Below are positions 2,991-46,493 of a DNA stretch of 64,000 nucleotides, one piece after another. The stretch is from Escherichia coli. Its GTDB lineage: Bacteria > Pseudomonadota > Gammaproteobacteria > Enterobacterales > Enterobacteriaceae. Location: assembly GCF_022846255.1 (NCBI RefSeq), contig NZ_AP025682.1. The stretch is one strand, 5' to 3'. Made by a program: the position numbers and the translations under genes. Numbering within the stretch: the first letter of the stretch is position 1; every line of letters begins with the position of its first letter. The notes beneath the pieces are model-generated. The model did no database searches, was not told the DNA's origin, and saw nothing but the letters and a program-made list of their open reading frames with translations.

Positions 2991-3143
2991 CTACTTCTTC
3001 GGTTCGTAAGCGAGAACAGCCTTAAACTCAATATTACGTTCCTTTACGGTAAACTCACACAGCGAGTCTCCGACCAGAAGCGTAAATCCCAGCACCGTTA
3101 AACACAGCACTATGACTGCCACAAGGGCATATTTCGTCAGCAT
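2991..3143 (-). CDS. hokE: Hok-family type I toxin (50 aa), copy 2
   Basis: Same as copy 1 except Val to Ala at residue 42 (EFKAV); this version matches the K-12 HokE sequence as recalled. Confidence 0.85.
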
Positions 3144-3243
3144 GTTTATATTGCCTCCATGCGAAGAAGGGACTACCATCCAAATTGTTCAGGTTTGGGT
3201 AGGTAGCCCCAGGGTTGATAGAAATATCGTCCTGGGGCTTCAT
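3055..3243 (-). CDS. mokE: mok leader ORF, copy 2
   Basis: Overlapping ORF as in copy 1, with a Leu to Pro difference at residue 11. Confidence 0.5.
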
Positions 3244-3579
3244 CTTTCCAGACCTCAGAGTAAACCTGAAACCGGAAAGCTTCAGGCACCCGCAGTTATC
3301 TTACCCTTCCTTAGCAAAATAGCTGTTTATTTATACAGTGAGTCCTGTTTCGGACTTCTCATTTAATCAACTGAAGCTGAACCCGTTTTTTTCTGCATGC
3401 CTCAATCGTCAAAATTCTTCGCCGCCAGCCAGCTCTGCCATAACTTGTCACATTGCAAAAGTAGCCAAATTGCTTCAGTCACAATCAGTTCTCCATCACC
3501 AAAAAAAGAAACATTCCAGAACTTCCGCATCTCACCCAGCCGCTCCCACTTCTATACTGAATAGAAAACGCCAACATAA

Positions 3580-7613: not shown

Positions 7614-7695
<82 letters not shown>

Positions 7696-7713
7696 AATCA
7701 GCCTCACATCAGC

Positions 7714-36532: not shown

Positions 36533-37042
36533 ATGTCTTCCCGCAATAATCCGGCGCGTGTCGCCATCGTGATGGGGTCCAAAAGCGACTGGGCTACCAT
36601 GCAGTTCGCCGCCGAAATCTTCGAAATCCTGAATGTCCCGCACCACGTTGAAGTGGTTTCTGCTCACCGCACCCCCGATAAACTGTTCAGCTTCGCCGAA
36701 AGCGCCGAAGAGAACGGTTATCAGGTGATTATTGCGGGCGCAGGCGGCGCAGCGCACCTGCCTGGCATGATTGCCGCCAAAACGCTGGTGCCGGTGCTGG
36801 GCGTGCCAGTACAGAGCGCCGCACTGAGCGGTGTCGATAGCCTCTACTCCATCGTACAAATGCCGCGCGGCATTCCGGTGGGTACGCTGGCGATTGGTAA
36901 AGCTGGCGCGGCAAACGCGGCGTTACTGGCAGCACAAATTCTTGCGACTCATGATAAAGAACTGCACCAGCGTCTGAATGAATGGCGCAAAGCACAAACT
37001 GATGAAGTGCTGGAAAACCCGGACCCGCGAGGTGCGGCATGA
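36533..37042 (+). CDS. purE: N5-carboxyaminoimidazole ribonucleotide mutase PurE
   Basis: Start [19 protein letters not shown]...; 169 aa. Confidence 0.95.
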
Positions 37043-38106
37043 AACAGGTTTGCGTCCTCGGTAACGGGCAGTTAGGCCGTATGCTGCGTCAGGCAGGCGA
37101 ACCGTTAGGCATTGCTGTCTGGCCAGTCGGGCTGGACGCTGAACCGGCGGCGGTGCCTTTTCAACAAAGCGTGATTACCGCTGAGATAGAACGCTGGCCG
37201 GAAACCGCATTAACCCGCGAGCTGGCGCGCCATCCGGCCTTTGTGAACCGCGATGTGTTCCCGATTATTGCTGACCGTCTGACTCAGAAGCAGCTTTTCG
37301 ATAAGCTCCACCTGCCGACCGCACCGTGGCAGTTACTTTCCGAACACAGCGAGTGGCCTGCGGTGTTTGATCGTTTAGGTGAGCTGGCGATTGTTAAACG
37401 TCGCACTGGTGGCTATGACGGACGCGGTCAATGGCGTTTACGCGCCGATGAAACCGAACAGTTACCGGCTGAATGCTACGGCGAATGTATTGTCGAGCAG
37501 GGCATAAACTTCTCAGGTGAAGTGTCGCTGGTTGGCGCGCGCGGCTTTGATGGCAGCACCGTGTTTTATCCGCTGACGCATAACCTGCATCAGAACGGCA
37601 TTTTGCGCACCAGCGTCGCTTTCCCGCAGGCCAATGCACAGCAACAGGCGCAAGCTGAAGAGATGTTGTCGGCGATTATGCAGGAGCTGAGCTATGTGGG
37701 CGTGATGGCGATGGAGTGTTTTGTCACCCCACAAGGTCTGCTGATCAACGAACTGGCTCCGCGTGTGCATAACAGCGGTCACTGGACGCAAAACGGTGCC
37801 AGCATCAGCCAGTTTGAGCTACATCTGCGGGCAATTACCGATCTGCCGTTACCGCAACCAGTAGTGAATAATCCGTCGGTGATGATCAATCTGATTGGTA
37901 GCGATCTGAATTATGACTGGCTGAAACTGCCGCTTGTGCATCTGCACTGGTACGACAAAGAAGTCCGTCCGGGCCGTAAAGTGGGGCATTTGAATTTGAC
38001 CGACAGCGACACATCGCGTCTGACCGCGACGCTGGAAGCCTTAATCCCACTGCTGCCGCCGGAGTATGCCAGCGGCGTGATGTGGGCGCAGAGCAAGTTC
38101 AGTTAA
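37039..38106 (+). CDS. purK: N5-carboxyaminoimidazole ribonucleotide synthase PurK
   Basis: 355 aa ATP-grasp protein; overlaps the purE stop by 4 nt. Confidence 0.95.
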
Positions 38107-38123
38107 TTGATGCTCATTTTCTT

Positions 38124-38310
38124 GCCGGATGCGGCGTGAACGCCTTATCCGGCCTACCGTTCCAACACCGCCTGTAGGCCTGATAAGATGCGCCAGCATC
38201 GCATCAGGCATGGTGTGCCGATTGCCGCATGCGGCGTGAACGCCTTATCCGGCCTACCGTTCCAACACCGACTGTAGGCCTGATAAGACGCGCCAGCATC
38301 GCATCAGGCT
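38124..38310. repeat. BIME: two tandem units of about 101 bp, each an inverted REP pair
   Basis: gcc(g/a)(g/c)atgcggcgtgaacgccttatccggcctac ... ctgtaggcctgataaga(t/c)gcgccagcatcgcatcaggc occurs twice in direct repeat. Confidence 0.85.
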
Positions 38311-38338
38311 AGATGTGCCAATTGCCTGGTGCCCATCA

Positions 38339-39232
38339 CTACAGCGAAATACAAGTCCCCGCTTCGCCCGCCAGCGTCTCTTCAATCCGCGATAACGCCC
38401 CAATCCACGCGGGTTTACCACGGCTTCTGACATAGCCACTCACCGCCGTTACCTTCGGCCCCATCGAACCATCGGCTTTGGCAAATGGCGCTAACTCATC
38501 CGGTGTGGCATGGCGAATGGCACGTTGCTGCGGCGTTCCCCAGTTTTCATATACCGCATCAGCATCGGTGAGGATCACCAGTCCATCGGCATTAATCTGC
38601 TCGGCGAGCAACGCAGCGGCGAGATCTTTATCAATCACCGCTTCACTCCCTGCCCCGTCTTCCGTCACAGGCACACCGCCGCCGCCACTGCAAATCACCA
38701 CATGCCCCTCTTTGAGCAACAACTCGATGGCTTCGCTGTCGAGAATTTTACGCGGTTGCGGAGACGCCACCACCCGGCGTAAATATTTACCATCACGTTT
38801 CATCTGCCAGCCGTAAGCCGCTTCCAGTGCCTCTTGTTCTTCTGGCTGATAAACCGGACCAATAAATTTCTCTGGCTGTAAAAACGCCGGATCATCAGGC
38901 GAAACCTCAATGCGCGTCAGCACCGTCGTGACAGGCGGCATCTGCGGCTGTGCGCTCAAGCTCTGCGCCAGCATATAGCCAATCATCCCCTGGCTTTCCG
39001 CCACCAGTACATCCAGCGGATACGGTTCTACCTCTTTCCACGCCAGATTCTGTAACGCCAGCAGCCCCACCTGCGGTCCGTTGCCGTGAACAATCGCCAG
39101 CCGATAAGAACGGGCCAGGCGCGCCAGCGCGGGTACAGCACTGGCAATATTGCGATATTGATTTTTTGCCGTCAGCGCCTCACCGCGCTGGAGTAAGGCG
39201 TTGCCCCCAAGAGCCACAACCAGTGTTTTCAT
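38339..39232 (-). CDS. ybcF: Carbamate kinase-like protein YbcF
   Basis: Start [15 protein letters not shown] (typical carbamate kinase N-terminus); its ATG overlaps the ylbF stop; the ORF-track N-terminal extension is rejected. Confidence 0.88.
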
Positions 39233-46410: not shown

Positions 46411-46452
46411 GTCATACCACTCGCCTGATTATTTTTAGCTATGTTGGATTTT

Positions 46453-46479
46453 GCCACGGTTTATACCGTGGCTTTTTTT
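46453..46479 (+). terminator. Rho-independent terminator after allE
   Basis: gccacggt-ttat-accgtggc followed by ttttttt. Confidence 0.7.
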
Positions 46480-46493
46480 GTAGTCAATTCAGG

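Follow-up and report, generated by a model that had tools for sequence, protein, structure and literature searches.

The window analysed here is a stretch of 64,000 nt of Escherichia coli DNA (contig NZ_AP025682.1 of RefSeq assembly GCF_022846255.1), in which the genes purK and ybcF are convergent. Both gene identities are supported by NCBIfam equivalog models, with PurK scoring 673.9 bits against NF004678 (cut-off 444) and YbcF scoring 619.6 bits against the carbamate kinase model NF006926 (cut-off 416), and both names are identical in the RefSeq annotation of the matching E. coli genomes. What separates the stop codons of the two genes is exactly the interval 38107-38338. The repeat array that occupies it is wholly extragenic and sits in the 3' region common to the purEK and ybcF transcription units, as expected of a BIME-2, an element found mostly in 3' untranslated regions. 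The features of the junction are collected in Table 1.

Table 1. The purK-ybcF junction and its repeat array, in window coordinates
Feature	Coordinates	Strand	Remarks
purK, 5-(carboxyamino)imidazole ribonucleotide synthase	37039..38106	+	355 aa; stop ends at 38106; from the ORF list
Unique lead, 15 nt	38107..38121	.	between purK stop and array
BIME-2 unit 1, 100 nt	38122..38221	+	Y REP, S linker, inverted Z2 REP, head-to-head linker; repeat search, Tandem Repeats Finder
Y-type REP 1	38124..38157	+	hairpin 38124-38153, then CTAC 38154-38157; inverted repeat, tail motif
Tail-to-tail S-type linker 1, 16 nt	38158..38173	.	CGTTCCAACACCGCCT
Z2-type REP 1, inverted	38174..38209	-	GTAG 38174-38177, hairpin 38178-38209; inverted repeat
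Head-to-head linker, 14 nt	38210..38223	.	ATGGTGTGCCGATT; aligned with the linker in naRNA4 (Rfam)
BIME-2 unit 2, 100 nt	38222..38321	+	repeat search, Tandem Repeats Finder, direct comparison
Y-type REP 2	38224..38257	+	CTAC 38254-38257; G-to-C at 38228 weakens the stem
Tail-to-tail linker 2, 16 nt	38258..38273	.	CGTTCCAACACCGACT
Z2-type REP 2, inverted	38274..38309	-	GTAG 38274-38277; first hairpin for a ybcF transcript; inverted repeat
Tail, 17 nt	38322..38338	.	TTGCCTGGTGCCCATCA; apparent degenerate Y-head remnant; Tandem Repeats Finder carries the array to 38326
ybcF, carbamate kinase	38339..39232	-	297 aa; stop at 38339; convergent with purK

The original prediction, made from the letters alone, was that a direct two-copy unit of about 101 bp, each copy an inverted pair of REPs, fills the gap between the two convergent genes, and that the idea would fall if the copies proved not to be homologous on alignment. 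A direct-repeat search returned two head-to-tail copies of 100 nt that are 93% identical and spaced by 100, and Tandem Repeats Finder reported, for 38122-38326, a period of 100 with 2.0 copies, 93% matches, 0 indels and a score of 361. When the two units are compared directly, 93 of the 100 positions are identical. The tandem repeat is far beyond chance, and the duplication and its placement are as predicted; only the unit length needs correction, the period being 100 nt.

Each unit is composed of a 34-nt REP ending in CTAC, a 16-nt linker, a 36-nt REP starting with GTAG and a 14-nt linker (34+16+36+14 = 100). Following the published consensus, we take the 34-nt REP to be of the Y type and the 36-nt REP to be of the Z2 type, an assignment backed by the Rfam match described below and by fuzzy matching. 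The Y and Z2 strings used in the fuzzy matching were the copies in the window itself, labelled after that consensus, and they place the REPs in the order Y>, <Z2, Y>, <Z2. The hairpin arms were resolved with a 6-nt inverted-repeat seed, the default 9-nt seed having given none. There are 10 occurrences of the REP tail motif CTTATCMGGCCTAC in the 64 kb of the window, where 0.04 would be expected. Four of the 10 are in the array, and the others mark two more BIMEs, one near 7.6 kb and one near 59.5 kb. From its sequence, the short tail TTGCCTGGTGCCCATCA on the ybcF side looks like the degenerate start of a third unit.

A REP is defined as an imperfect palindrome of 30-40 nt whose stem contains a mismatch and whose foot carries GTAG, or CTAC when read on the complementary strand, and a BIME-2 as y and z2 REPs in inverse orientation with a short S linker and flanking s, l or r motifs, present in tandem copies whose number varies between strains (PMC3333891). 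The four palindromes of the array are 34-36 nt in length, have CTAC/GTAG feet and an internal mismatch, and align with Y and Z2 REPs of other loci in an identity check. The alternation of inversely oriented Y and Z2 REPs is seen both in the fuzzy matching and in an end-to-end alignment with the naRNA4 model. Both tail-to-tail linkers are 16 nt, as in the S linker, and the tandem arrangement is present in two copies in the window and in 1, 2, 3 or 5 in-register units in other genomes. The head-to-head linker ATGGTGTGCCGATT aligns with the l linker of naRNA4 with several mismatches, in a comparison made with the l class. The purK-ybcF array is a BIME-2 of the E. coli REP/BIME family, with two units and four REPs, and the predicted duplicated BIME of inverted REP pairs can accordingly be given its type, Y plus Z2 with short linkers.

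The Rfam naRNA4 model (RF02564) matches 38177-38254 on the minus strand, the sense of ybcF read-through, at 75.6 bits against a gathering score of 59.5; on the plus strand the score is 51.8 bits, which is below threshold. The alignment comprises the Y hairpin, the linker and the Z2 hairpin, with one non-standard pair caused by the G-to-C change at 38228. naRNA4 itself is one 77-nt Z2-l-Y unit of REP325, a 12-hairpin array between yjdM and yjdN (PMC4550694). Since the model also passes its threshold at a different BIME of the window (59520-59597, 70.0 bits), it detects generic Z2-l-Y pairs of BIME-2 elements and not the purK-ybcF locus specifically. Other kinds of element were considered and rejected. 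The array is not a BIME-1, because its linker is 16 nt and not the long L, the partner of the Y REP is a 36-nt Z2 and not a Z1, and the units are tandem and not single. CRISPR repeats and microRNAs gave Rfam matches far under threshold.

Several other features of the window were recorded along the way. The more distal of the further BIMEs, at ~59469-59664, consists of a Y REP, a 16-nt linker, a Z2 REP, a linker, another Y REP, a 34-nt A/T-rich L-like linker (ACAATCTTGCAAAATCAATATATTGCTCGATCCTC) and a short Z1-like REP; by its sequence it looks like an 'atypical' BIME in which BIME-2 and BIME-1 parts are mixed. The other, at ~7620-7697, is a single REP pair, in which a 16-nt linker joins a Y-like REP to a short Z1-like one. 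Among the RNA families, the Rfam 'sok' antitoxin RNA has two minus-strand matches 504 nt apart, at 2631-2787 (84.0 bits) and 3135-3291 (86.2 bits; gathering score 59), and this sequence pattern suggests a tandemly duplicated hok/sok-type toxin-antitoxin locus. A tRNA-Arg gene with anticodon TCT lies at 24828-24904 (minus strand), and there is a match to the STnc480 sRNA at 46417-46483 (minus strand; 87.1 bits against a gathering score of 72).

To follow the junction across the species, 5,426 complete E. coli genomes were searched with a 600-nt query made of the two flanks only, and the purK-ybcF locus was found once in 5,425 of them. Gap lengths were read from 60 rows evenly spaced down the ranking, and the length classes were decomposed from fetched representative alleles (Table 2). 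The original prediction had pointed out that REP copy number at such sites often differs between strains, and this proved true of the purK-ybcF junction, where the gap ranges from 126 to 533 bp and holds 0, 2, 3, 4, 6 or 10 REPs. The K-12 form (194-204 bp) carries a Y and a Z2, followed by a truncated Y head and another Z2.

Table 2. Gap-length classes among 60 sampled rows of the locus search
Gap	Sampled rows (of 60)	Content
126 bp	2	one unit
136-138 bp	20	one unit
152 bp	5	spacer without any REP
194 bp	17	K-12 form, three REPs
204 bp	4	K-12 form, three REPs
233 bp	1	two units (232-233 bp)
332 bp	2	three units
532-533 bp	8	five units
ybcF side deleted	1	

A search with the REP-free 152-bp spacer matched it nearly full-length in 238 of the 5,426 genomes. 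From that search and the 60-row sample, at least one REP pair is kept in about 92-96% of genomes. An example of the REP-free spacer is found in E. coli ExPEC XM (NZ_CP025328.1, extracted segment 401-552), where a weak hairpin followed by TTTT comes after purK. The central ~50 nt of this spacer (CCCTCACCCTAACCCTCTCCCC...GGGGCGAGGGG) also match other loci in some genomes and may be another small repeat family. A different kind of loss was seen in NZ_AP022107.1, where allE comes directly after purK; this genome has lost the part of the allantoin gene cluster on the ybcF side, and the BIME along with it.

Among the 60 best-ranked genomes, in which the flanks are 100% identical, 34 have one unit, 17 have three and nine have five, and none of these 60 has two or four units, an apparent excess of odd unit numbers in the allelic series. 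The two-unit form is present in E2348/69 and at least 39 other genomes. The exact allele of the window was found in none of the matches listed, the best being 99.1% identical over 532 nt. Totals of matches covering 80% of a query with the three- and five-unit alleles (1580 and 1669) are not copy-number counts, as BLAST joins pieces of shorter arrays. In NZ_CP098214.1, whose two-unit allele is the closest, the RefSeq annotation has a CDS of 330 nt for a 'hypothetical protein' (extracted segment 1-238) that ends 95 nt before purE; the matching position upstream of purE is occupied by the end of lpxH in K-12 and in the window, and the CDS may be an annotation or frameshift issue of that assembly. 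Repeat assemblies of one strain are concordant in unit number, as seen for Nissle 1917 and its derivatives, CFT073, ATCC 25922, the DS566 series and E2348/69. Unit number is therefore a character of the lineage and does not flicker in culture.

The structure of the alleles indicates how they arise. The period is exactly 100 in all arrays. The tail is common to six alleles of the window unit type, TTGCCTGGTGCCCATCA being identical in CFT073, Z0117EC0036, HCM-27C-1, FDAARGOS_536, AF5 and Z247, and in these six the internal units end with CATGGTGTGCCGAT, and the last unit ends with CT(A/G)GATGTGCCAAT. The lead of the window (about 15-16 nt) is shared with CFT073, FDAARGOS_536 and AF5 (600-nt flanks 100% identical to the window) and with Z0117EC0036, and the remaining lineages that were decomposed have a different lead of 16-17 nt. 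Unit 1 of the window matches, at 98% identity, the opening units of the arrays in several other strains and also the internal unit 3 of Z247, and unit 2 matches the last units of arrays in other strains at 95-96%. The constant period, the shared tail and the matches of first and last units show that whole, in-register units are gained and lost inside the array. Units within the purK-ybcF locus are 88-99% identical, against about 79-85% for arrays at other loci and 81% for another BIME of the window, and higher identity within a locus than between loci is the pattern that local amplification predicts. In the five-unit array of AF5 (extracted segment 401-932), units 2 and 4 and units 3 and 5 form near-identical pairs, a sequence pattern that points to a 200-bp higher-order repeat.

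At the RNA level, all four REPs of the window are predicted to form stable hairpins on both strands, with energies from -14 to -21 kcal/mol and z-scores mostly from -3 to -4. On the plus and minus strands, respectively, the values are -21.3 and -20.9 kcal/mol for Y REP 1 (z about -4), -20.5 and -20.0 for Z2 REP 1, -14.4 and -16.6 for Y REP 2, and -17.3 and -19.8 for Z2 REP 2. The predicted hairpins carry an internal mismatch, and two of the four REPs have changes that weaken the stem. The entire gap folds at -104.1 kcal/mol (z = -5.9) on the plus strand and at -103.3 kcal/mol (z = -3.9) on the minus strand. A transcript reaches the foot of its first hairpin 17 nt past the purK stop and, on the other strand, 29 nt past the ybcF stop. 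A scan of 37800-38700 gave 0 terminator-like sites on either strand, inspection of the sequence revealed no U-run after any of the four REP hairpins, and a scan around the array found no promoter on either strand.

Every REP-bearing allele examined keeps a REP beside each gene, and the energies of these hairpins range from -21 to -31 kcal/mol except in two alleles. In these two, the purK-proximal Y is degenerate, at -12.8 and -16.7 kcal/mol. The hairpins of the REP-free 152-bp spacer are much weaker (-11.7 and -12.9 kcal/mol).

What the array does for its neighbors can be approached from the literature on comparable elements. The REP325 array limits transcription of the downstream gene about ten-fold, in part through Rho, and protects the upstream mRNA, and a four-hairpin sub-array of REP325 gives rise to discrete hairpin-ended RNAs (bioRxiv 10.64898/2026.03.23.713779). 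The same study found a REP between about 30% of convergent gene pairs and reported that such pairs are more highly expressed. Moreover, Term-seq has shown that Rho-dependent transcripts end just past stable stem-loops lacking U-tracts, as a result of trimming by PNPase and RNase II (PMC6061677). Because of these reports, and because an intrinsic terminator is missing, we favor the view that the array is a two-sided 3'-end module. The original prediction, that the units likely stabilise or terminate both convergent mRNAs, is in keeping with the stable hairpins on both strands and the missing intrinsic terminator. In our judgment it is likely that the array protects the 3' ends of both convergent mRNAs and partially attenuates transcription through Rho, with the number of units changing by recombination or slippage. 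The retention of a REP beside each gene in REP-bearing alleles, bar the two with a degenerate Y, fits such a role.

The sequence of events would be as follows. Transcripts of purEK or ybcF would run into the array; indeed, with no intrinsic terminator at hand, RNA polymerase coming from either side would have to enter it. Each REP hairpin would then block the 3'-to-5' exonucleases PNPase and RNase II. For the purEK mRNA, a protective stem-loop would form the end, the first one met being the Y REP 17 nt past the stop, and the same would hold for the ybcF mRNA, with the Z2 REP 29 nt past its own stop as the first. At the same time, the array could serve as a leaky attenuator, assisted by Rho, that reduces antisense transcription running into the opposite gene. 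The array could expand and contract when its 100-bp units recombine unequally by homology or slip during replication, possibly aided by a REP-associated transposase. In K-12, the expression of purK is far higher than that of ybcF (baseMean 1170 vs 73; supplement of bioRxiv 10.64898/2026.03.23.713779), so the purEK side is likely to matter more. The entries for purK and ybcF in that supplement are expression values only, and a literature search on REPs at purK-ybcF returned no relevant paper.

The most serious alternative is that the array is essentially neutral or selfish repeated DNA, whose copy number shifts through unequal recombination, through slippage or through the action of the REP-associated tyrosine transposase and brings neither purK nor ybcF any locus-specific benefit. 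We regard this as a real possibility, with the balance somewhat against it. The spread from 0 to 10 REPs in one gap, the REP-free allele, the internally deleted K-12 form with its three REPs and the degenerate stems of some units are all what such DNA would be expected to display, TnpA-REP cleaves and recombines BIMEs in vitro, and the number of copies at one locus is known to differ (PMC3333891). Against it stand the retention of at least one REP pair in the great majority of genomes, the persistence of gene-proximal REPs in every array allele, and the genome-wide correlation of REPs between convergent genes with higher expression. It should also be noted that this explanation is about selection and not about mechanism, and is compatible with molecular effects of the kind proposed above. 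The existence of the REP-free allele in 238 genomes, together with one to five units on identical flanks, does count against strong selection on the array. It implies that the array is dispensable and that its length is probably near neutral, the exact unit number included.

A less likely alternative, though still one to be taken into account, is that the array acts at the level of DNA as a strong, transcription-independent site for gyrase binding and cleavage. It would then absorb the positive supercoils that build up between convergent units, and more units would mean more sites. Gyrase cleavage sites are over-represented in BIME-2 elements, with Y preferred over Z2, and cleavage does not depend on transcription, since the signal goes up, not down, with rifampicin (PMC6379681); the array has two Y REPs between convergent genes. 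However, only a subset of BIME-2s contain cleavage sites, the purK-ybcF locus is not named in the text or the searched supplements of that study (PMC6379681), and REP-free genomes exist. Gyrase action is in any case not exclusive of an explanation at the RNA level.

The allelic series could also be read in the opposite sense from near-neutrality, with the unit number (0, 1, 2, 3 or 5) being a lineage-stable 'dial' that sets purEK mRNA stability, antisense read-through or gyrase loading. We consider this improbable. If it were true, the preference for odd numbers would reflect the 200-bp higher-order repeat.

Three further explanations are very unlikely. The first is that the array is a source of a naRNA4-like noncoding RNA that binds HU, bridges REP cruciforms and condenses the nucleoid. 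The naRNA4 match above gathering score is on the ybcF-sense strand, and the HU model was first put forward for REP325 units, which share this build (PMC4550694), but the Rfam model matches the BIME at 59520-59597 as well and is thus generic, ybcF is weakly expressed in K-12, and a re-examination in 2026 found REP325/naRNA4 to be without effect on nucleoid volume and detected no REP-REP contacts (bioRxiv 10.64898/2026.03.23.713779). The HU model is now contested by its own former proponents, and we give it little weight. The second, a classical bidirectional intrinsic (Rho-independent) terminator, would account for the GC-rich hairpins on both strands, and 78 REPs do lie inside previously identified bidirectional terminators of convergent genes (bioRxiv 10.64898/2026.03.23.713779), but it is contradicted by the empty terminator scan and by the lack of a U-run behind any hairpin. 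In the third, the array would down-regulate translation, a REP near the stop codon stalling the terminating ribosome and triggering tmRNA tagging. REP hairpins do occur shortly past both stop codons. In work by Liang, Rudd and Deutscher from 2015, a REP reportedly must be within about 15 nt of the stop to stall ribosomes and provoke tagging, and the feet at the purK-ybcF junction are beyond that limit on both sides.

For biology at large, the array is of little importance, since REP/BIME elements have been known since the 1980s and variation in BIME-2 copy number is in the literature. Its value is more practical. For annotation, the whole purK-ybcF gap is now explained, and the short ORFs that overlap the array are not genes. 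The interval is a length-polymorphic site that could be used as a lineage marker, or could mislead short-read assemblies and size estimates by PCR. With its natural series of 0, 1, 2, 3 and 5 units, the locus could also serve as a test bed for whether the number of REPs tunes 3'-end stability or termination.

With respect to known systems, the array is an already known kind of element, strain-dependent copy number of BIME-2s included, and what is added here is the documentation of that variation at the purK-ybcF junction. It shares with the BIME-2 family the inversely oriented y and z2 REPs, the short S linker, the tandem copies and the strain-dependent copy number, and in these features shows no essential difference from it. 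BIME-1, composed of Y plus Z1 with a long L linker that carries an IHF site (PMC3333891), belongs to the same REP superfamily and shares the Y REP, and the array differs from it in the linker and in having Z2. The resemblance to REP325 is that Y and Z2 palindromes alternate in tandem units joined by a short linker (l in REP325), and the same roles as partial Rho-dependent attenuator and mRNA stabilizer have been proposed; however, REP325 has 12 palindromic units and is located between co-directional genes of one operon, whereas the purK-ybcF array has four and is located between convergent genes. The closest relative is the REP cluster at the same locus of K-12 MG1655 (NC_000913.3, 551333-551526), which has the same orientation and the same first unit (Y, S linker, Z2 and head-to-head linker), and whose flanks free of REPs, taken as 300 nt to either side, share 97% identity with those of the window. 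In MG1655, the gap is 194 bp with three REPs, against 232 bp with two complete units in the window; the second Y has been lost for the most part, together with some of its linker, and past the last Z2 the two sequences differ.
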